A DNA stretch of 10,642 nt from Pseudomonadota bacterium (GTDB lineage Bacteria > Myxococcota > JACRCW01 > JAFGSX01). Where the stretch lies: contig JBDRCO010000017.1 in the NCBI GenBank assembly GCA_043821645.1, forward strand, positions 1 to 10,642, read 5' to 3'. Below, in pieces: positions 2 through 9,234 of this stretch. The translations under genes were made by a program, and so were the position numbers. The number at the start of each line of letters is the position of its first letter. Within the stretch, counting starts at the first letter, position 1. The notes below the pieces were generated by a model that was given only the letters and a program-made list of their open reading frames with translations, was not told the DNA's origin and did no database searches.

Positions 2-3000
2 GCCACGGTGCACGTCTTTGTCGACGTGGCCGGCCCCGTGGTCACCCTGTCTGGCTGGGCCAGCAGCGCAGCCAGTACGCGCCTGGTGGCCCTGTCCGCC
101 GCCTCGGGCTCGCCCACCCTGCTCGCCACCGCGACCCAGCCCGACCTGGACTACAACGCCACCACGGATGGCCTGCAGTTCGGCTTCAAGGTGGTGGTCA
201 CGGGCGAGACCGCGGCCAGCCTGGGCAGCAACCCGCAGGCGGGCCTGACCATTCAGGGCATCAGCCAGCCCATCTTCGCGCCCCTGGTGGCGGTGGGGCA
301 GACCTTCGAGGCCGTGTTCGACGCGGCCGGCGCCGGCATCACCCTGGCCGACGGACCGCTGAGCTTCGCCGCCGCGGTCACCGACGCCGCGGGCAACGCG
401 GGCAGCGACACTCGCCACGCCCTGGTGCAGAGCGCGCAGTACTACATCCGCATCGACAGCCCGGCGGACGGCGCCTACGTGCAGAGCGCCATCCTCGACG
501 TGGTGACCACGGGCTCGGTGTTCGACGGCGCGATGTGCGACCTGCTGCTCGACGGCAGCGTCAGCACCTCGCTGGCCATCACCGGCGGCGCCCTGACCTT
601 TGCCAACGTCAACCTGGGCAGCGAGGCCGCGCACACCCTGCAGGTGAGCTGCGACATTGGCGGCGGCGACACCGCGGACAGCGCCGTGCACACGGTGACC
701 GTGGACCTGACCGCGCCGGCGGCGCCGGCCTTTGCCTTTGCGGTCAGCGACACCGCGGGCCACCTGCCCACGGGCGGCTTCTTCAACCTGAGCTGGGCCA
801 GCGCCGACGCCGTGCGCTTTGTGCGCGACATCGACCTCGTGGCCCCGGCCACGGGCAACGCCTGCCTGTACGCCGACCCCGACCTGAACGCCACGCCCAC
901 CAGCCCCAGCGGCACCGCGGTGCACTACGCGGCGCAGGGCCAGAGCGGCGCGCAGTGGATCCTGAACGGCAGCGACTGCACGGCGACCTTCGCCGACGTC
1001 GACCTGGGCCTGCTCAATGATCCTGGCCAGCAGTGGACCCTGCGGGCTGACATCACCGACCTGGCTGGAAATCCCAACTTTGTCGAGACAAGCCTGTGGG
1101 TGGATCGTGTGGCGCCGACGCTGGTGCAGGTCCTCCCCGCATCTGGTGTGACCAATCTTGGCAACGTCTTCGACGATGACCCTGGAACGGCGGGTCTTCA
1201 GATGACGAGCGCGCACCGCTGGAATTTTACAGTCAATGACAGAGCCCTCACGGGTAGTCTGACGCTGTCATTTTCTGGGACAGCCTCAGGCACGGTCATT
1301 CGTCCTGCTGTGAGCGGCACGATTCGTGTCTCAACGAGTTGGGCATCGGATGGCATATACAACGTGACCGTGAGTGTCCCGGACGCTGCTGGCAATATCA
1401 CGGTTCTTGGGCCGACTGCGTACGTCGTCGATCAGGATGTTCCCACGCTGACTCTGCGAGACAGGAACAATGTTGTACTGGCCGAGGAAGACCGGAGCCT
1501 CAGTATTGAACAGGGCTCACCCCTCATGTGGGGCGCTGCCTACGACGTGAGCGCGACCGCTGGCGGGCAGTTCAATTTCAACGTGATCGTGGATGGCGTT
1601 CGCACCGGCTTCACCGTCAGACTCTGCGCCACCAATCCTGGACCAGGCGCGACTGTTGATTGTGCAATATCTGGTGGAGGCGCCGGAATTGCAGTGACGG
1701 GTAAGATCGTCGGTCAGCAGTTCGTGACACCAGGTACGTTGGGGCAAGGTACAGCCACTTTTTCTGCAATCACTCTTGAGCAAGGTATAGGCCAAGTCTA
1801 TGTCGGAACAGACGACGAAGCAGGAAATCATTCTGCGACCTATCCGGTCGAACTCAGTATCGACACTTTTGCACCTGCGCTGAGCACCATAGTGGTTGCG
1901 AACAATATTCCCAACAACGACACCGCCTGTGCCCCAGCCAGCTGTCTGGGAATCGGCGAGAACCCCAGCGACATCGTCGTCACCGTCAGCAGCGCTGGCG
2001 ACAACGAGGACCTGAGCGGTCGCACCGTGACCCTGACCAGCTCCAATAGCGGTCAAGCCGCCATCCCGACCGCCAACCTGACGGGCACACCGCCCACCTT
2101 TACCGCCACCTTTGCCAGCGTCACACTGGCCGAGGGGCAACACCAGCTCACCGCCGCCGTCACCGACGTCATCGGCAACGCCCTAGTGACCACCGGAGCG
2201 GTCAACCCCCAGCGCTTCGTGGACACTGTCGCGCCAAGCATCGTGGCGCACACACCCAGCGATACGGACCAGTACTCGGCCGCGACCTTTGACGTGACAC
2301 TCGAGGCCGCTGACGGCGCCAACCTGGTCGAAGGTTACGCCATCTCGCTGACCAACAGCACCACGGCCAGCACCCAGAACGCCACCATCGCCGTGGGCGC
2401 CAGCAGTGCCCAGTTTGCGGCCATGGCCATGCAGGACAACGCCAGCAACAGCCTCAGCGCCACGATCACTGACCGCGTGGGCAACGTGAGCGCGCCCTAC
2501 AATTTCACCTACGACGTGGACACGGCCGCGCCGGCGCTGGCCCTGCTGGCTCCCACCTCGCCACAGACCCTGAGCGGCAGTGGCGCCTGCCTGACCACCA
2601 ACATCTTCCACGTCTCGCTGACAGGCGTTAACCGTGCGGCCAACACCTTTGTGCAGCTACAGTCGCGCACCTCGGGAAGCGGCGGAAGCTGGGCCATCGT
2701 CACCGACAGCGATCGCGCGGTCAGCGCCGACAGCGCGGACCTGCAGTTCACGGCACCAGATCCCTGCCTCAAGCCTGGTCCGCGTGAGATCCGGGCCAGG
2801 GTGTACGAGACAGACACCCTGCACGAGACCCTGACCGGCTCGGTGACCGTGGACGTGGACCTCGGGGTCCCCGTTGTCACCATCCGCGACCTGAGCGCCA
2901 CCGAGGTGCAGACAGGGCACCGCTTCATCGCGGCCATGGACACCAATGCCACGGTTGGCGTGTACGAGACGGCGCTCGAGGTCGAGTCGCTCAACGCGGC

Positions 3001-5260
3001 CGTGGGCTCGACCGTGCGGCTCATCATCAACGGCAGCCAGGTCGCCACCGACGTGCTGGGGGCCAGCAACACCGCCACCTTCACCGGTGTGGTGCTGCGC
3101 GACTTCGGCGCCACGGGCCTGACCAACATCATCCGCGCCGAGGTGGTCGACGGGCTGGACACAGGCTTCAGCGAGGCCACGGACTGCTACGCTGACGGCG
3201 ATTTGCCGACCATCGCCTTTGTCAGCACGGCACCGCGAACCTACCTGTACGTCGACGACCTGAACCATGCCGCCGTGGGTCTGCAGACCGCCGCTGCCAA
3301 CGGCGTCTCCATCACCACCACGGGCCTCGACGTGGCCACGGTGACTGCGACCTTGAGCTGCACGGGCATGAGCCCGGATGCCACCACCGACGTCACCAGC
3401 AATGCTGGTGAGTTCGTGGACATCGCAGGGCTGCTCACCTCGACAACGGCCTACGTGTGCTCGGTTCGTGTCGCGGACATGACAGGCAACGAGGCAGTTG
3501 GCGCGGCGACCAAGACCCTGACCGTGGACATCGACAGGCCAGACTTGCCGCAGGTGGTGGCCTGCATTGGCGAGGATGCATGTTACGGAGCTGGCTGCAC
3601 ACCCACCGAGAGCTACGAAAAGGACGACAACACCGGCGCGGCCAAGTGCTACGTGGCAGCCGGTTTTGGTGGCGCCTGCGGCAACGGCGTGGACGGCATT
3701 GACGACACGCGCTGCTCACGACGTGGCACCTTCGTGACCCTGACCTGGGTGGCGCCCGGCGACAACGGGAGCAGTGGTGGTGCGGTCAGCGGCTACACCA
3801 TCAGCTACAAGCCCATGGCCATCGCGGCCAGCCCGGCCTGCAGCGACATGAGCGGCGCGACCACGGTGGACACCAACGGCATGACCATCGTGGCGCCAGG
3901 CCAGCAGCAGAGCTTCACCGTCACCGGCCTCGGCGTGCATAAGGACTACTGCTTCGAGGTCACGGCGCAGGACGCGACGGGCAACGCGGCCAAAGGGCCG
4001 CTGGTGCTAAGGCGGGTACCTTTGGTGGTCGCCCATGTCATCAACGGTGCGGGCTCGCCCTTCTTTGGAGCTAGGGTCAATATGAGTGGCGACCTCGATG
4101 GCGATGGCCTTGCTGACTTAGTGATCAGCAACTCAGGTTACACGACCGATAGCACGGCGAATCGAGGCCGAGCTGTTGTGCACTTCGCCGACCTATCGAA
4201 GCCCGATGTGCACATCACTTTCGCTCCCGCGCACGCTGGATCAAGGTTTGGAAACTCTGTCACCACCGGTGACTTCAACGCGGACGGCTACTCGGACGCA
4301 GCCATCTCAGAGATGGGCTGGGGTCGTGTCTACATCTACTTCGGCTCCGCCACGGGCTTCGCTCAGGCGGTGAATCCTGCGTCTCCCGACCCAGGTCATA
4401 ACCCTGATCTGCCGAGCCGAGTTCCCGACGTCATAATCCAGACGGCGACGACAGGTTCGATTGGTCTTGCCAACAGGCCGCTGAATTTGAACGGCGATTC
4501 TGTGGCAGGTCGTCCGCTTGAGGATCTCGTGATCCACAACATCTCCAACAAGGCCGAGTATATCCTCCTGGGCCGAACAACCTGGCCAAGCGCGCTCGAC
4601 ATGGTGAGCGATGCAAGCTGTGTCTTCAGCATCGCAGACTCCACGACTGGCAGCGTCATCATGCTGACTGGGGCAGACTTCGATGCGGATGGCATGGATG
4701 ACCTAGTCGTTCCCGCTACCAGTTCCTCGGCGACAGGTTACGCCTACGTCGTTTACGGCCGGTCAAGCTGGCCCACGTCTCTCGACTTCCAGGGCGCGAA
4801 CGTCTTCAGGTTGAGTAATGGCAACGGGCTGTTCGCTCAGAACGCAATTGCATATCAGGCCACCCAGGATGCCGCTGCTGATCTCGCCCTGTTCGACTCG
4901 ACTCTGGGTGCGCGCAGGGTTTTCGTCTATACCGGAAGCGCGGGTCAGAAGGTTGCGCCCGCGCTGGTCTCGACTATCACGGTCCCCAACGCACAGAACA
5001 ACGTCGAGTCTCTCGGTGATCTGACCTCGGATGGTATCGCAGATCTCTGCATCGCCGATCCGCAGGCCACGACTGAATCAGGCGACCTCCATTTCTACGG
5101 CGGTCTGGCCAGTAGTGTCGCGACCACGAGCGGGACCAGTTATGAGTCCACGCCACAGTTTGGCAGCAGTTTGTCAAGTGGTGGGGACAGCAGTGGCGAC
5201 GGCTATCATGATCTCGCAGTAACGAATGGAACAACGTTAGTAGTCACTATTCTTAAGTGA
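2..5260 (+). CDS. Large extracellular/adhesin-like protein (5'-truncated): tandem Ig-like repeats, Cys-rich insert, fibronectin type III domain, C-terminal FG-GAP beta-propeller
   Basis: The frame is open from base 2, so the real start is probably upstream; >=1750 aa, rich in T/A/G/V/D/S. Recurrent Ig-like motifs (TDAAGN, TDLAGN, PDAAGN, DDEAGN, TDVIGN, TDRVGN, ADMTGN), typically followed by a VDxxAP-like linker. FN3 signature VTLTWVAPGDNG...YTISY...TVTGL...YCFEVTAQD at ~3735-3990. FG-GAP Ca-binding loops GDLDGDGLADL, GDFNADGYSDA, ADFDADGMDDL, GDLTSDGIADL, GDSSGDGYHDL at ~4060-5260. Confidence 0.9.
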   Translation, partial: ATVHVFVDVAGPVVTLSGWASSAASTRLVALSAASGSPTLLATATQPDLDYNATTDGLQFGFKVVVTGETAASLGSNPQAGLTIQGISQPIFAPLVAVGQTFEAVFDAAGAGITLADGPLSFAAAVTDAAGNAGSDTRHALVQSAQYYIRIDSPADGAYVQSAILDVVTTGSVFDGAMCDLLLDGSVSTSLAITGGALTFANVNLGSEAAHTLQVSCDIGGGDTADSAVHTVTVDLTAPAAPAFAFAVSDTAGHLPTGGFFNLSWASADAVRFVRDIDLVAPATGNACLYADPDLNATPTSPSGTAVHYAAQGQSGAQWILNGSDCTATFADVDLGLLNDPGQQWTLRADITDLAGNPNFVETSLWVDRVAPTLVQVLPASGVTNLGNVFDDDPGTAGLQMTSAHRWNFTVNDRALTGSLTLSFSGTASGTVIRPAVSGTIRVSTSWASDGIYNVTVSVPDAAGNITVLGPTAYVVDQDVPTLTLRDRNNVVLAEEDRSLSIEQGSPLMWGAAYDVSATAGGQFNFNVIVDGVRTGFTVRLCATNPGPGATVDCAISGGGAGIAVTGKIVGQQFVTPGTLGQGTATFSAITLEQGIGQVYVGTDDEAGNHSATYPVELSIDTFAPALSTIVVANNIPNNDTACAPASCLGIGENPSDIVVTVSSAGDNEDLSGRTVTLTSSNSGQAAIPTANLTGTPPTFTATFASVTLAEGQHQLTAAVTDVIGNALVTTGAVNPQRFVDTVAPSIVAHTPSDTDQYSAATFDVTLEAADGANLVEGYAISLTNSTTASTQNATIAVGASSAQFAAMAMQDNASNSLSATITDRVGNVSAPYNFTYDVDTAAPALALLAPTSPQTLSGSGACLTTNIFHVSLTGVNRAANTFVQLQSRTSGSGGSWAIVTDSDRAVSADSADLQFTAPDPCLKPGPREIRARVYETDTLHETLTGSVTVDVDLGVPVVTIRDLSATEVQTGHRFIAAMDTNATVGVYETALEVESLNAAVGSTVRLIINGSQVATDVLGASNTATFTGVVLRDFGATGLTNIIRAEVVDGLDTGFSEATDCYADGDLPTIAFVSTAPRTYLYVDDLNHAAVGLQTAAANGVSITTTGLDVATVTATLSCTGMSPDATTDVTSNAGEFVDIAGLLTSTTAYVCSVRVADMTGNEAVGAATKTLTVDIDRPDLPQVVACIGEDACYGAGCTPTESYEKDDNTGAAKCYVAAGFGGACGNGVDGIDDTRCSRRGTFVTLTWVAPGDNGSSGGAVSGYTISYKPMAIAASPACSDMSGATTVDTNGMTIVAPGQQQSFTVTGLGVHKDYCFEVTAQDATGNAAKGPLVLRRVPLVVAHVINGAGSPFFGARVNMSGDLDGDGLADLVISNSGYTTDSTANRGRAVVHFADLSKPDVHITFAPAHAGSRFGNSVTTGDFNADGYSDAAISEMGWGRVYIYFGSATGFAQAVNPASPDPGHNPDLPSRVPDVIIQTATTGSIGLANRPLNLNGDSVAGRPLEDLVIHNISNKAEYILLGRTTWPSALDMVSDASCVFSIADSTTGSVIMLTGADFDADGMDDLVVPATSSSATGYAYVVYGRSSWPTSLDFQGANVFRLSNGNGLFAQNAIAYQATQDAAADLALFDSTLGARRVFVYTGSAGQKVAPALVSTITVPNAQNNVESLGDLTSDGIADLCIADPQATTESGDLHFYGGLASSVATTSGTSYESTPQFGSSLSSGGDSSGDGYHDLAVTNGTTLVVTILK

Positions 5261-5267
5261 GCACAAC

Positions 5268-5444
5268 ATGCAGAAGAAAAAAGAAGACGCGATCAGGAAC
5301 ACGCAACGATGCCTCTCTCGCCGACCCTACGAGCCACCAGCACTTTCATCCGAGCCGGTGTTCGCAGCAGTTGCGGCCTGCTCACAGGGCAGCGACACAA
5401 GCGGTGAAGGCGACTGCAATGGTGGACCCATTGTGTCTGGTTGA
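5268..5444 (+). CDS. Putative RiPP precursor peptide, 58 aa (MQKKKEDAIRNTQRCLSRRPYEPPALSSEPVFAAVAACSQGSDTSGEGDCNGGPIVSG)
   Basis: Translated by hand: ATG at 5268, TGA at 5442-5444; too short for the ORF track. Basic N-terminus, RRPYEPPAL matching the YxxPxL motif of RRE-dependent (lasso-type) leaders, and a Gly/Ser/Asp-rich C-terminal region with two Cys. Ends 15 nt before the rSAM/SPASM ORF. Confidence 0.8.
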   Translation: MQKKKEDAIRNTQRCLSRRPYEPPALSSEPVFAAVAACSQGSDTSGEGDCNGGPIVSG

Positions 5445-5459
5445 GCTCGCGCGCACGAA

Positions 5460-6620
5460 GTGACAATGGCTAGCTTCTTCGATAACATCGAAGCTCGATA
5501 CGCTGCCAGTTGCAGGCTCTTCGCTTTGTCCGTCGATCTGACTTGGCAGTGTAATCTCAAGTGCTTCCACTGCTATCTTTCGCGGAAATCCGCAATTGCC
5601 CAGGCTAGTCGCCTTGATGTCGACATCGCCTTGCGACTCCTCGAGGACGCAGCCGAATTGGGTGCGGTTTCCTTGCTGCTCAGCGGAGGTGAACCGCTAT
5701 TCCATCCCGATATCTGGAAGATACTGAGTCGCGCCAAGAGCTTGAATTTGTTCACGTCGATCTTCACGCACGCAGGGCTGATTGATGAGACATGTGCACG
5801 AGAACTCCGCAGACTGTCCATCCTGGATGTAGGTATCAGTCTCTACAGCAACAGTGCAATGATTCATGACAGCGTGACCGGTGTTGGTGGGTCATTCAAA
5901 AAAACGATGCGCGGCATACGGGCGCTGCTCTCTGAGGGAATTCACGTCACCATCAAGACGCCAGTGCTCGCCGGGTACAACGACAAAACTCTCGAGACCT
6001 TCATGGAATGGGTTGAAGCACTCGGTCCACGAGTGCGCCACTCTCTTTCACCTGATATCACACCCAGGGACGACGGTGACTGGAAGACTTTTCGCTACAA
6101 ACCTGATCTGACGCAGAGCCTCCGAGTCCTAGAGTTGCTAGGAAGGCGCGATCAAAAAGTGGTGCAGGCGAGCCGATTCGACCCTGCGCTCAGAGAAATG
6201 CGACTCGATTCATTTCCGTGCAAGGCAGGGATTAGCAGGCTTCATGTCCGTGCCGATGCAGTGGTCACTCCTTGCATGGAATTGATTCACCCACTCGGCG
6301 ATCTGCATACGGATCGATTGCCAAGTATATGGGAACGTATCAAGGCCCCCGGCGGAATGGCCTTCATGCCACGGCTCGGCGAGATCAAAGGCTGCGCCAC
6401 GTGCGAGCACATAGATCGTTGTAGTCCATGTGTCGGATTGGGGCTCAAGCAGCAAGGCGAGGCCGCCGACACCCCGATCACGAGCTGTTATAGCACCTAT
6501 GCGCGGCTGCTCCATGAGGACCCCGCTTGCCTTCCCCCAAAGCCGCTGCAAGGTGATTCGGTTCATCCCTCCAGTTTCGTGTGCGGATCGAGTTTCTGCA
6601 TGAGGAACTGCACAGACTGA
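5460..6620 (+). CDS. Radical SAM/SPASM-domain protein, probable peptide maturase
   Basis: CxxxCxxC (CNLKCFHC) and SGGEP motif. C-terminal SPASM-type cysteines: C-x17-C ... CATC-x5-C-x2-C-x18-C. The start may be ATG 5466 instead of GTG 5460. No room for an N-terminal RRE domain. Confidence 0.92.
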   Translation: MTMASFFDNIEARYAASCRLFALSVDLTWQCNLKCFHCYLSRKSAIAQASRLDVDIALRLLEDAAELGAVSLLLSGGEPLFHPDIWKILSRAKSLNLFTSIFTHAGLIDETCARELRRLSILDVGISLYSNSAMIHDSVTGVGGSFKKTMRGIRALLSEGIHVTIKTPVLAGYNDKTLETFMEWVEALGPRVRHSLSPDITPRDDGDWKTFRYKPDLTQSLRVLELLGRRDQKVVQASRFDPALREMRLDSFPCKAGISRLHVRADAVVTPCMELIHPLGDLHTDRLPSIWERIKAPGGMAFMPRLGEIKGCATCEHIDRCSPCVGLGLKQQGEAADTPITSCYSTYARLLHEDPACLPPKPLQGDSVHPSSFVCGSSFCMRNCTD

Positions 6621-7363
6621 AGCTGTGGTGGGTAGTAAAAAAAGTAGAGACGCTGGCGAGCGACGTACTCGGAACAGAGCCCGAAGAGCCGGTTCCATTC
6701 GTCGGTTGTTCGTTCGAACTTGGTCAGTTGCTCGAGAACAAGCGCAAGAGCCCTCTGTTCTGTCAGAGCTTCGAGTCTGGCGATGGGATCCTTCTCGAGT
6801 TTCATGAGGAACCTGAGTTGACAAGGTTCCGCGATCTGCTTGCCCGCGAAGTCGCTCAAGAAAGGGGTCATCGCTGTCTTCCATACCCCTGACTCTCTGT
6901 AGACCAACGAGCCGTCGTCAGAGTAGGCTTCTCCGATCAGAGATGAGAAGGTTGATTTTCCGGCTCCAGAACGTCCAGGGCAAAGGACGCCATGACCCAT
7001 GATGCGCGTCGATGCGGCGTGGACAAAGAACCCTTCTGCGTCGAGCATCCAGTGCTCGAGCAGGTGTCGTGTTGCATGAATCACAGCGTCTCGCGAGCCA
7101 AGAGTGCCTTGGTACAGACCGCGAGATAGCTGGACATGCGCAGTGGAGTCCGCGCTCAGTGAACTACCGCACGACGGGATTGCGGTAAAAAGCTGTCCAG
7201 GCCTCTCGGCCGACCTGTCAACCCAGGTGAGAAGCACATGATATGTCGTGTTCTTTGCAGACAGAAAGCCGTCAAAGACATGCGAAACAAGTGCGGCAAT
7301 TTCGGGAACGGATGTCTCGAAACCTACGGTGAGGGGTCCAATGGTGACAGGAAAGGTTGGCAT
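6563..7363 (-). CDS. HprK-related P-loop kinase-like protein (ScmC-like / RiPP-associated)
   Basis: 266 aa with the motif order VHAAS...GVLCPGRSGAGKST (Walker A)...YSDD...TPF, the His / P-loop / DD signature of the HPr kinase-PEPCK fold. Similar proteins are known beside PqqD and rSAM genes. Confidence 0.8.
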   Translation of the reverse strand: MPTFPVTIGPLTVGFETSVPEIAALVSHVFDGFLSAKNTTYHVLLTWVDRSAERPGQLFTAIPSCGSSLSADSTAHVQLSRGLYQGTLGSRDAVIHATRHLLEHWMLDAEGFFVHAASTRIMGHGVLCPGRSGAGKSTFSSLIGEAYSDDGSLVYRESGVWKTAMTPFLSDFAGKQIAEPCQLRFLMKLEKDPIARLEALTEQRALALVLEQLTKFERTTDEWNRLFGLCSEYVARQRLYFFYYPPQLQSVQFLMQKLDPHTKLEG

Positions 7364-7814
7364 TGAATTGCTTGCGCGACGCTACTGGTGTCGTGTTCGC
7401 GAGTTGCTTGAAGGCGGAAATCAGGTCACGATATCTGTCAGCTCCGGATCCATGAGACCACTTCTGCAATCGGGTGACACCATCACCGTGGTCAGAATAT
7501 CCAGAGAGTTACATGCTGGGGACATTTTACTTGTACACATCGGCCACAACAGGCTCAGGCTTCACCGTCTGCTCACGCATAGAGAGCACTTCATTCAGAC
7601 CAAGGGAGATTCATTGGGTAGCGCGGACCGTGAGCAGAGGGTTTCGGACATCCTCGGCATCTGCGTCGCCATCAACGGCCACCGCATCGACACGCCGACC
7701 TGGCGCTTCGTGAACCGGCAGATCGCTCGCATCTCGCCTTACTCCCACCAGCTTCGCGCTCCCATCCGGGTCCTCGGGCGCATTCGCCGCGCCCTGGGTC
7801 TTTGGTGGCTGTGA
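7341..7814 (+). CDS. S24/S26-family (signal peptidase I-like) peptidase, apparently without an N-terminal membrane anchor
   Basis: Motifs GSMRP (catalytic Ser), GD, LHRL (His, as in Ser/His-type S26 enzymes) and TKGD. Start uncertain: ATG 7341 follows GAGGGG at 7331-7336; TTG 7368 is an alternative; the ORF-track start at 7248 overlaps the kinase too deeply. Confidence 0.8.
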   Translation: MVTGKVGIELLARRYWCRVRELLEGGNQVTISVSSGSMRPLLQSGDTITVVRISRELHAGDILLVHIGHNRLRLHRLLTHREHFIQTKGDSLGSADREQRVSDILGICVAINGHRIDTPTWRFVNRQIARISPYSHQLRAPIRVLGRIRRALGLWWL

Positions 7815-7856
7815 ACCGGGACACCGTTCATCGTTTCTGGTGGCCCGGATCGCTCC

Positions 7857-7968
7857 CCTTGTCGCCCGCACGGGCCTCCTTGTCGGTCCACTGGCCTTCC
7901 TTGTCGCCCCGCAGGGCGTCCTTGTAGGCCTGTCAGGGCTTCCTTGTAGCTCGCGGCCGGGCGCTTGT
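7857..7968. repeat. Degenerate 21-bp tandem repeat with a CCTTGT core
   Basis: CCTTGT begins at 7857, 7878, 7899, 7920 and 7942, and GCTTGT at 7963 (spacings 21, 21, 21, 22, 21). Confidence 0.85.
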
Positions 7969-8020
7969 CACCTCTGTGCCGCGGCCGTGCACCGGGCCCG
8001 GGTTCGGCTGCGCAGCGGTG

Positions 8021-8237
8021 GGCTTCCGTCGCAGCGGAACGTGATCCGCGCCACGGGTCAGGGCTTCCGATACACCTGACTGTGATCCGCGCCACGGGTC
8101 AGGGCTTCCGTAGCGCCCGGAACGTGATCCGTGCCACGGGTCCCGGCTTCCCAATAGCGGGGGAGGGCTTCCCAATACCAGGGAAGGGCTTGCCAATGGC
8201 GGGGAAGGGCTTGCCAATAGGAGGGGAAGGGCTTGCC
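8021..8237. repeat. 41-42-bp tandem repeat (3 copies) merging into a 21-bp tandem repeat with a GGCTT(C/G)CCAAT core
   Basis: The 29-mer GTGATCCGCGCCACGGGTCAGGGCTTCCG is identical at 8041 and 8082 and degenerate at 8124. GGCTT begins at 8021, 8062, 8103, 8145, 8166, 8187, 8208 and 8230. Confidence 0.9.
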
Positions 8238-8263
8238 CGCAGGTGGGACCGGCCACTGGACCT

Positions 8264-8671
8264 TCATGCCAGCAGGACCTGAACGACCTGCTGAAAATCT
8301 CTGAGGCACTGCCTCTCGGTGCGCACCGCCTCGAACACCGTGTCGAGGTCCAGCCTGCGGTAGGCGTGGGCGACCAGGTTGCGCAGGCCTATCCAGCCCT
8401 CGATGGCGACCGAGAGCTCGGTCGTGAGCAGACCGGCCTCGGCAAGACGGCGCACGCCATCGCGGTAGCTCCCGGCTTGCTCGAGACCGCGCTCGACGAT
8501 GAGAAGATTGCACAGATCGACCAGGTCCTGCTGCACCCGGTACACCGCGAACAGCACCATGTTCTGCACGTCCCGGTCGCGCTCGAAGCGCTCGCCGGTC
8601 ACCTCGCGGGCGTAGCGATCCAGGTCGTCCAGATCGCGGCGCAGGGCCACCAGCAGCTCTTCGCGGCTCAT
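8264..8671 (-). CDS. HEPN (DUF86/HepT-like) RNase toxin, 135 aa
   Basis: MSREELL...GLRNLVAHAYRRLD carries the R-x4-H-x-Y HEPN motif. Its ATG (8671-8669) overlaps the stop codon of the upstream MNT gene (ATGA coupling). The ORF-track extension to 9040 is spurious. Confidence 0.9.
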   Translation of the reverse strand: MSREELLVALRRDLDDLDRYAREVTGERFERDRDVQNMVLFAVYRVQQDLVDLCNLLIVERGLEQAGSYRDGVRRLAEAGLLTTELSVAIEGWIGLRNLVAHAYRRLDLDTVFEAVRTERQCLRDFQQVVQVLLA

Positions 8672-9108
8672 GTCGGCGCCGTCCGCAGCATGCCGCTCAC
8701 CCGCTGGATCGACGCGGCCAGGTCCTGGTAGTCGCTGAGCACCCGCGCCTCGAACTCGATGCGGGCTTCGCGGTCCGCCTCGAACACCCGCACGCCCCCG
8801 CGCAGAACCGCAAAGGTGAACGCCACGTCGTCCGCGGTCAGCTCGCGCAGGTCCACGGGGAGGTCCGTGCCCAGAGCGTCCTCGAGCTCGCGCGTCAGCA
8901 CGGCGCGCTCGGACAGGCGAAGCGCGCGCTGTGACCTGAGGACGAGGCCGACATCCAGATCGCGCGCCCGCTGTGCCCGGCAGGCTGAACCGTACAGGTA
9001 GGCTGCTGCCACGTCGTACCGGCTGAGCACCTGGTTCCAACGCGTGCGCGCCCGCTCGAGCAGGTCGGGCGGCACAGAACGCATCGGGTGCTCGTCGTGG
9101 TCAGCCAT
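8668..9108 (-). CDS. Minimal nucleotidyltransferase (MntA-like antitoxin), ~146 aa
   Basis: AYLYGS-x8-DLDVG and VDLREL motifs of the Pol-beta-type minimal nucleotidyltransferases, directly upstream of the HEPN gene. Start ATG 9108 (alternative 9084). Confidence 0.88.
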   Translation of the reverse strand: MADHDEHPMRSVPPDLLERARTRWNQVLSRYDVAAAYLYGSACRAQRARDLDVGLVLRSQRALRLSERAVLTRELEDALGTDLPVDLRELTADDVAFTFAVLRGGVRVFEADREARIEFEARVLSDYQDLAASIQRVSGMLRTAPT

Positions 9109-9146
9109 GGGCCCAGTGTAGCTGACGCGCTTGACGGCCATCAAGC
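9109..9146 (-). promoter_or_regulatory. Putative sigma70 promoter for a leaderless MNT-HEPN transcript, overlapped by an 18-bp palindrome
   Basis: The minus strand reads TTGATG (9144-9139), 18 nt, TACACT (9120-9115), 6 nt, ATG (9108), with no SD. The palindrome GCTTGACGGCCATCAAGC (9129-9146) covers the -35 element. Confidence 0.55.
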
Positions 9147-9234
9147 CGCCGCAGGCACATCCGCCTGAGAGGCAGGCCAAGGCCGGAGAGGGCAAGGGCT
9201 CCAGGCAACTTCGGGGTACTGTGGGCCGCGGCCC

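Follow-up and report, generated by a model that had tools for sequence, protein, structure and literature searches.

Linear polyphosphorylated peptide (LPP) clusters, described from Paenibacillus alginolyticus as lppA-K-B-S-D-N (Nat Commun 2026, PMC13381572), are the natural point of comparison for the gene set considered here. According to the published description, the LPP precursor carries a leader of the type YxxPxVL; the HprK-like kinase LppK puts several phosphates on Ser3 of the core; and the SipW-like peptidase LppS (Ser29/His68/Asp93) removes the leader, a step that required LppB in vitro. Both activities were shown experimentally (PMC13381572). LppB is an RRE (RiPP recognition element; RiPP, ribosomally synthesised and post-translationally modified peptide), and a YxxP-type motif is said there to bind RREs in both LPP and lasso leaders. 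The clusters also hold an NTP-transferase and an exporter. LPPs are called restricted to Bacillota, and the main text of the paper mentions neither radical S-adenosylmethionine (rSAM) enzymes nor SPASM domains nor Myxococcota (PMC13381572). Here we describe a cassette with a similar logic in a stretch of 10,642 nt (the window), which is the whole of contig C17 of an uncultured myxobacterial genome bin (7.07 Mb; 140 contigs; 94.7% complete). The cassette spans positions 5268-7814 in the ORF listing and consists of a 58-codon ORF and genes for an rSAM/SPASM enzyme, a P-loop protein of the HprK/PEPCK fold and a soluble Ser/His peptidase of the S26 type. It is probably a RiPP-type peptide-maturation cassette, the substrate of which would be the unannotated 58-aa peptide.

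The likeness to LPP was judged by gene types and motifs as they are described. Both systems have a short precursor with a YxxPx[V/L] leader and an HprK-like kinase, and both are without a lasso cyclase. The LPP leader peptidase is an archaeal/SipW-type signal peptidase I with Ser/His(/Asp); the window has a putative counterpart with invariant Ser and His, which scores below the threshold of that family. In contrast, an rSAM/SPASM enzyme is present only in the window cassette, while a discrete RRE, an NTP-transferase as well as an exporter of the MsbA type are absent among the window ORFs. The putative core has 21 residues with two Cys, against 45 residues in the LPP description, the phylum is Myxococcota and not Bacillota, and the precursor gene follows the gene of a giant FG-GAP protein. 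By analogy, the cassette would follow the LPP scheme, extended by an rSAM step and stripped of the RRE, the nucleotidyltransferase and the exporter. A first-pass annotation of this DNA had called the system a candidate undescribed one. This holds only in part, since LPP, published in 2026, already brings together an HprK-like kinase, a leader peptidase of the SipW-like kind and a precursor with a YxxP leader (PMC13381572). What is new in the window is that an rSAM/SPASM step is added, that the RRE is missing, that the phylum is another and that there is a link to an FG-GAP protein.

The peptide gene (5268..5444, plus strand, ATG start) follows the giant gene (stop at 5260) at a distance of 7 nt, and 21 nt separate its end from the rSAM ATG. 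Several frames are open over the gap of about 200 nt between the giant and rSAM genes, so that the 58-aa ORF by itself proves nothing; nor does codon-position GC distinguish its frame from two overlapping frames. The ORF is very probably a real precursor because the peptides neighbouring the enzyme genes of relatives share its leader. In same-phylum genomes (the phylum, Myxococcota, being assigned by source names), 26 small ORFs beside HprK-like genes share one plan: a Lys/Arg run leads into [Y/W]-x-x-P-x-[L/I/V], after which come a segment that is partly hydrophobic and a tail, mostly with Cys. In most of the 26, the tail opens with a Cys, and the 10-30 residues behind it are rich in Cys, Asp, Glu, Gly, Pro, Ser and Thr. 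The leader Pro is invariant in 24 aligned peptides, and the Tyr/Trp nearly so. The window ORF follows the plan with RRPYEPPAL (residues 18-26; 5319..5345), in which a basic pair precedes the Y-x-x-P-x-L of residues 21-26, with a hydrophobic stretch closing in A-V-A-A, and with a 21-residue tail that holds two Cys. This tail, Cys38-Gly58 (5379..5441), rich in Asp, Glu, Gly and Ser, is the putative core, its boundary being proposed from the alignments. The small residues A-V-A-A ahead of it suit a cut of the signal-peptidase type, and in most relatives the first Cys likewise comes after the hydrophobic end of the leader. The core of about 21 residues predicted in the first-pass annotation agrees with this family-wide position of the first Cys.

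A leader profile of 28 columns was built from the 26 relatives' peptides, with the window left out, and was scored on the small ORFs (25-130 aa) of the 7.07-Mb genome. It ranks 5268-5444 first of 53,307 (19.1 bits, E 0.0022; runner-up E 0.081), whereas the loose leader motif alone is present in 381 of them (0.7%). The exact 58-aa sequence is absent from a collection of 15 billion proteins that does include three proteins of the same contig, namely the rSAM enzyme (384 aa), the peptidase (157 aa) and the kinase-like protein in a shorter version of 161 aa; the small ORF was therefore missed by the gene caller, as had been suspected. Elsewhere, the equivalent peptides of G018, G040 and G003 are annotated genes. 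No NCBIfam model matches the window peptide or the 18 leader-type peptides scanned, and a word-indexed protein search with the precursor gave no candidate. The peptides of the relatives discussed below as trio-type share the acidic two-Cys tail with the window peptide. In both the G018 peptide and the window peptide this tail ends in C-x-G-G-P-I, and the C-terminus of the G040 peptide, I-I-S-G, can be set beside I-V-S-G in the window.

The gene set recurs. Relatives of the rSAM enzyme were sought in 41 related genomes, and the HprK-like profile was run on 401 sampled genomes of the phylum. The best same-phylum rSAM matches (G018, G033, G009, G040 and G026; 26-31% identity, E 1e-37 to 5e-45) are all five adjoined by HprK-like and S26-like genes; relatives with such a trio of enzyme genes are called trio-type here (genus g10 and G026). 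The HprK-like profile matches 223 of the 401 genomes. The 30 best HprK-like loci, window included, comprise 17 stretches of 2.1-3.9 kb and 13 wider ones (7-13 kb, or the window itself). With our own profiles, an S26-like gene is found in 26 of these 30 loci and an rSAM/SPASM gene in 14, with two more by Pfam only. A leader-type ORF is present in 23, a count that includes the doubtful L069 and comes from a profile trained on most of these peptides. A discrete PqqD is found in one locus, L054; the rSAM enzymes of several other loci have about 95 extra N-terminal residues. The constant core is the precursor, the HprK-like gene and the S26-like gene, and the rSAM/SPASM gene is a frequent addition. 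Thus the reading of the 58-aa ORF as the most likely substrate of a RiPP-type set is strengthened by the recurrence of its YxxPxL leader beside the HprK-like genes of relatives.

Beyond the phylum sample, a trio-type HprK-like profile was compared with 1.84 billion cluster representatives and gave 14,749 matches at E<=1e-3, 6,828 at 1e-10 and 204 at 1e-30. Among ten top clusters that were looked up, all seven source names read 'hypothetical protein', and the metagenome-assembled genomes are labelled Myxococcota, Deltaproteobacteria and Terriglobales.

The loci also vary in their composition. In many loci of the Myxococcaceae type (L070, L059, L038-L042, L046, L049, L051-L053), the HprK-like gene is followed by that of a protein of about 330 aa, which apparently joins the S26-like domain to a GNAT acetyltransferase domain at the C-terminus, and no rSAM gene was seen in the stretch examined. 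A sub-family of leader-type peptides (L055, L056, L057, L065, L036) is free of Cys and has a conserved C-terminal G-P-[EF]-R-E-[AS]-P-[RQ]-R; in NCBIfam, the rSAM enzyme of L055 comes closest to YydG, a family of epimerases (65.4 bits, with the cut-off at 300). The scaffold of leader, kinase and peptidase would then be shared, and the chemistry carried out on it another one. In large Myxococcaceae genomes (L062, L063, L071, L072), weaker HprK-like matches lie between miaA and the gene of a beta-propeller protein of about 1020 aa, the C-terminus of which ends in a conserved Cys-bearing motif. Finally, contig C3 of the genome to which the window belongs carries a second cassette (about 8640-16000; 4641-11971 in locus L066). 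Its rSAM enzyme has an N-terminal PqqD, HprK-like and S26-like genes are both present, and they are followed by the gene of a giant protein of 1434 aa in which Peptidase_S8 and Peptidase_C25 were recognised. A leader-type ORF was sought next to this cassette and not found.

The kinase-like protein (6563..7363, minus strand; 266 aa) is recognised by its fold and its motifs. A profile of 23 relatives matches HPr kinase/phosphorylase chains in the PDB at 1.9e-5. The AlphaFold2 (AF2) model has a pLDDT of 88.2 and a pTM of 0.86, and with it Foldseek finds ATP-dependent PEPCK (1.5e-6) and HprK/P (3.6e-6); the N-terminal half is modelled as a beta-rich domain. Walker A, G-x-S-G-x-G-K-S-T, occupies residues 130-138. 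In 23 sequences, His115, Ser132, Gly135, Lys136 and Thr138 are invariant, and Gly130, Gly133 and Asp149 nearly so. On this evidence the protein seems to be an HprK-like kinase at the level of fold and motif, and it is a putative peptide kinase. The protein carries the precomputed Pfam label PF27840. The public annotation has only a 161-aa form (6563-7048 as compared with 6563-7363); the 266-aa form is favoured by homology and by confident AF2 residues 1-50 (block means 89-96).

Several curated assignments were considered for this protein and rejected. It scores 16.2 bits with the model of bona fide HPr kinase/phosphorylase (hpr-ser, TIGR00679; cut-off 240). With HPr-rel-A / HprK-related kinase A or B (TIGR04352, TIGR04355; cut-off 200) the result was 15.2 bits for HprK_rel_B, HprK_rel_A not being among the matches listed. 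The SynChlorMet cassettes (TIGR04248-TIGR04251), which the first-pass annotation had brought forward as similar, do combine an HprK-related P-loop protein with PqqE-like rSAM/SPASM enzymes, and their product is unknown. The likeness is remote, however: ScmC scores 18.2 (cut-off 125), ScmF 91.3 and ScmE 82 (cut-off 400 for both), and the window has one rSAM gene instead of two and no ScmD/PqqD. To our knowledge, an S26-like peptidase is not part of the definition of these cassettes. No literature was found under the name SynChlorMet. A search for literature on HprK-like and radical SAM RiPP combinations, myxobacterial genome mining included, returned one lasso-cluster paper and, as judged by title or abstract, nothing on this cassette.

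Phosphorylated lasso peptides of the paeninodin type have in common with the window a [Y/W]xxP leader and an HprK-like kinase that acts on a Ser of the precursor, as they are cited in the LPP paper (PMC13381572). They differ in having a macrolactam synthetase, a B2 cysteine peptidase and an RRE. In the part of the window ORFs that was scanned, there is no Pfam or NCBIfam match to an Asn-synthetase-like synthetase or a transglutaminase-like B2 peptidase. With neither cyclase nor B2 peptidase, a lasso cluster was rejected.

The third member of the constant core, the peptidase, is encoded by 7341..7814 (plus strand; 157 aa). The longest form of its ORF begins at 7248 (7248..7814); the most likely start, 7341, is the annotated one and is backed by homology. 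The protein scores 28.4 bits with sigpep_I_arch (cut-off 51.85) and 22.4 with Peptidase_S24 (cut-off 23.3), and its G018 relative passes the archaeal signal-peptidase model at 57.2 bits. Ser37 and His75 are invariant in 10 peptidase relatives, Asp90 and Asp96 nearly so. The AF2 model (pLDDT 80.5) is matched by Foldseek to LexA, SipA, human SEC11 and SpsB. The maximum Kyte-Doolittle hydropathy over 19 residues is only 0.92, so the peptidase has no membrane anchor, and a true signal peptidase was rejected for this lack of a membrane segment. What is left is a putative leader peptidase of the S26B (SipW/SEC11-like) type.

The rSAM/SPASM enzyme has 384 aa from the ATG at 5466 (5466..6620, plus strand), the ORF being open from a GTG at 5460 (386-aa form). 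It matches Pfam Radical_SAM at 6.2e-22 and SPASM at 18.7 bits, under the cut-off of 21.5. Cys31, Cys35 and Cys38 (CX3CX2C) and Cys254, Cys272, Cys312, Cys315, Cys321, Cys324 and Cys343 (386-aa numbering) are invariant in 12 sequences, the window and 11 relatives, so the protein has both the CX3CX2C motif and the seven-Cys SPASM domain by which a radical SAM/SPASM peptide maturase is recognised. Its best peptide-maturase matches in NCBIfam are thioether, PQQ and mycofactocin-type enzymes, all sub-threshold. With the maturases of ranthipeptides and sactipeptides (PapB, StsB, AlbA, SkfB) it shares the rSAM/SPASM architecture and a Cys-containing precursor. The scores are 80.9 for StsB (cut-off 625), 49.2 for AlbA (850) and 47 for SkfB (300), and PapB is not among the 25 best of 71 families listed. 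Maturases of these types usually carry an N-terminal RRE. The window enzyme differs in this respect: its radical SAM cluster begins at residue 31, which leaves no room for one. Elsewhere in the genome, PqqD domains occur on contigs C99, C3 and C87 only, apart from one sub-threshold match on C101.

Another parallel is offered by the maturation of quinohemoprotein amine dehydrogenase by QhpC, QhpD and QhpE, likened here in its scheme. As described, the thioethers, from Cys to Asp/Glu, are introduced by an rSAM enzyme into a polypeptide that is small and acidic and has Cys residues and a leader, a dedicated serine protease removes that leader, and the small crosslinked chain becomes a subunit of a larger secreted enzyme (PMC7876137). 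The differences are that QhpE is subtilisin-like and not of the S26 type, that no kinase takes part, and that QhpC is larger and has a quinone cofactor (PMC7876137).

On the basis of these elements, a pathway can be proposed, of which every chemical step and the cut site are suggestions. Translation of the 58-aa peptide would coincide with that of the giant FG-GAP protein gene or follow closely on it. The leader of the peptide, with the basic stretch, YEPPAL and the hydrophobic stretch, would serve as the handle for the enzymes. By analogy with LppK and the lasso kinases, the HprK-like protein may phosphorylate a core Ser/Thr near Cys38. The rSAM/SPASM enzyme, presumed to hold two auxiliary clusters, would modify the core by radical chemistry; the most likely product, judging from ranthipeptides, sactipeptides and QhpC, would be a thioether that joins one Cys, or each of the two, to Asp/Glu or to a different acceptor carbon. 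Finally, the soluble Ser/His S26B-type peptidase would cut after A-V-A-A and so free the core of about 21 residues.

A number of observations weigh against this pathway. No PqqD/RRE was found in Pfam and profile scans of the window ORFs, the kinase-like model contains no winged-helix RRE either, and in the LPP system LppS is described as not cutting without LppB (PMC13381572). There is also no exporter in the window. The E-value of the leader profile is modest, and its 26 training peptides were picked by a motif taken from the window ORF. No cassette component attains any curated NCBIfam cut-off, and the kinase-like protein matched only itself in a word-indexed search. The best of 758 rSAM matches in 5.8 billion proteins is only 31% identical, and a quick tree puts the window rSAM on a branch of length 2.36, which is unplaced and groups with other long branches, so that no clade is claimed. 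None of the relatives has its kinase-like gene in the inverted orientation seen in the window, where the gene moreover overlaps with the one on either side. In addition, the GC content of the cassette is about 55%, against 64-73% on both flanks. Since all three enzymes are extremely divergent and the GC content is low, a decaying or recently transferred copy has to be considered: the cassette would have been acquired horizontally and rearranged, would be without its RRE, and would no longer make a product, though relatives make theirs. We regard this as distinctly unlikely. All cassette ORFs are intact; CX3CX2C, the seven SPASM Cys, the Walker A, His and Asp residues of the kinase-like protein and the Ser and His of the peptidase are all retained; and both AF2 models, of the kinase-like protein and of the peptidase, are confident. 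As to the RRE, the trio-type relatives in genus g10 and G026 likewise have no PqqD next to the trio, and the genome has PqqD domains in other places, the one on C3 being fused to the rSAM enzyme of the second cassette.

Other alternatives concern the chemistry and the substrate. Cys-bearing cores also occur in relatives for which no rSAM gene was found in the examined stretch, and some rSAM-bearing relatives have Cys-free cores; the cysteines therefore do not prove thioethers. The logic of precursor, kinase and peptidase might hold while the rSAM enzyme epimerises residues or makes a C-C or C-O link, in which case the two Cys would simply pair as a disulfide once the peptide is exported. Such a product is suggested by the Cys-free relatives with their YydG-like enzyme and by the Cys-rich cores at loci without a detected rSAM gene, but it sits less well with the full seven-Cys SPASM domain of the window enzyme, with its thioether, PQQ and mycofactocin-type best matches, sub-threshold as they are, and with the trio-type cores, which all have two Cys and nearby acidic residues. 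It seems unlikely to us. A very improbable alternative is that the enzymes act on the giant FG-GAP protein or on some other protein, the small ORF being a chance frame or a regulatory leader. It is true that no neighbour of the peptide gene is kept more constantly than the giant gene and that rSAM/SPASM enzymes crosslinking whole proteins have been described (PMC13692751). Yet a chance frame would hardly have a leader that is conserved over 26 loci and that ranks first in its genome, nor would its counterparts in G018, G040 and G003 have been called as genes by other annotators, and the leader motif is the one that is read in LPP and lasso precursors according to the LPP paper (PMC13381572). 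The maturation of the 58-aa peptide by the three enzymes is thus the reading that we retain.

The giant gene itself (2..5260, plus strand) has its 5' end cut by the contig start. Its surface-type product has Big_13 (Ig-like) domains (1e-12), fn3 (1.4e-6) and C-terminal FG-GAP repeats (7.8e-21) in Pfam. The precursor gene lies 1-18 nt behind such a giant Ig-like/FG-GAP gene in eleven loci; examples of the gap are 7 nt in the window, 1 in L056, 7 in L059, 8 in L021, 9 in L065 and 12 in L057. L070 and L073 have no such gap, since their longest small ORF overlaps with the end of the giant gene. Fifteen giant neighbours were scanned with Pfam: seven have FG-GAP repeats (six of these with Big_13), four Peptidase_C25, two other beta-propeller repeats, one TPR and one no domain. 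In trio-type relatives no peptide gene lies beside the enzymes. Instead, in G026, G040 and G018 a leader-type ORF directly follows an FG-GAP gene on a contig other than that of the kinase, rSAM and peptidase genes, from which it appears that the pair of FG-GAP gene and peptide gene is kept although the enzymes are elsewhere. The G018 peptide was located only by walking from the end of the FG-GAP gene. No leader-type peptide was found in G033 and G009, nor did the G040 peptide, used as a query on three further g10 genomes, yield any match.

This pairing allows for a further, doubtful possibility. By analogy with QhpC, whose rSAM-crosslinked chain is described as a subunit of its amine dehydrogenase (PMC7876137), the modified peptide might belong to the giant Ig-like/FG-GAP beta-propeller surface protein as its dedicated partner, in the form of a small crosslinked subunit, plug or ligand, and not be a free natural product. 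Such a role would explain why the precursor gene stays so close behind the giant gene in the eleven loci.

In its layout, the window cassette is compact, as had been noted, and all four ORFs lie at the coordinates listed before, but the cassette does not run in a single direction, a point on which the first-pass annotation was silent. The kinase-like gene is on the minus strand; it forms a convergent pair with the rSAM gene, the two overlapping by 58 nt at their 3' ends, and a divergent pair with the peptidase gene, with a head-to-head overlap of 23 nt. Because of this inversion the four genes do not make up a single co-directional operon. On the contig, 5.3 kb lie upstream of the cassette and 2.8 kb downstream. 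The intergenic stretch 7836..8241, which separates the peptidase gene from that of HepT, contains tandem-repeat arrays with units of 21 and 41 nt: about four copies of a 21-nt unit (7857-7950), three copies of a 41-nt unit (8020-8151) and about four copies of another 21-nt unit (8145-8234). There are no inverted repeats in this stretch. The minus-strand genes at 8264..9195 encode a type VII toxin-antitoxin pair of the HepT/MntA type, recognised by NCBIfam and Pfam: the HepT-like RNase scores 66.7 bits (NF047751) and the MntA-like nucleotidyltransferase 56.5 bits, the cut-off being 60 in both cases; the longest ORFs of both extend far upstream of the matched domains. A gene with a PAS domain lies downstream of this pair and runs to the contig end. 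Short contigs of the window stretch are carried by four DNA runs. Those of X1, X2 and X4 are identical to it or differ by one letter, and X3 has two more partial pieces with five differences each. No RNA dataset carrying the stretch is listed.

Members of the family without an RRE raise the question of what reads the YxxPxL leader when a PqqD-like domain is missing. The HprK-like family occurs in Myxococcota and, by source names, in Acidobacteriota. That a giant FG-GAP gene so constantly accompanies the precursor gene suggests that the peptide has its role in connection with a surface protein rather than as a free antibiotic. If the proposed pathway is true, the kinase-plus-signal-peptidase logic of the LPPs would be the core of a much larger family, many members of which have added radical-SAM chemistry to it.

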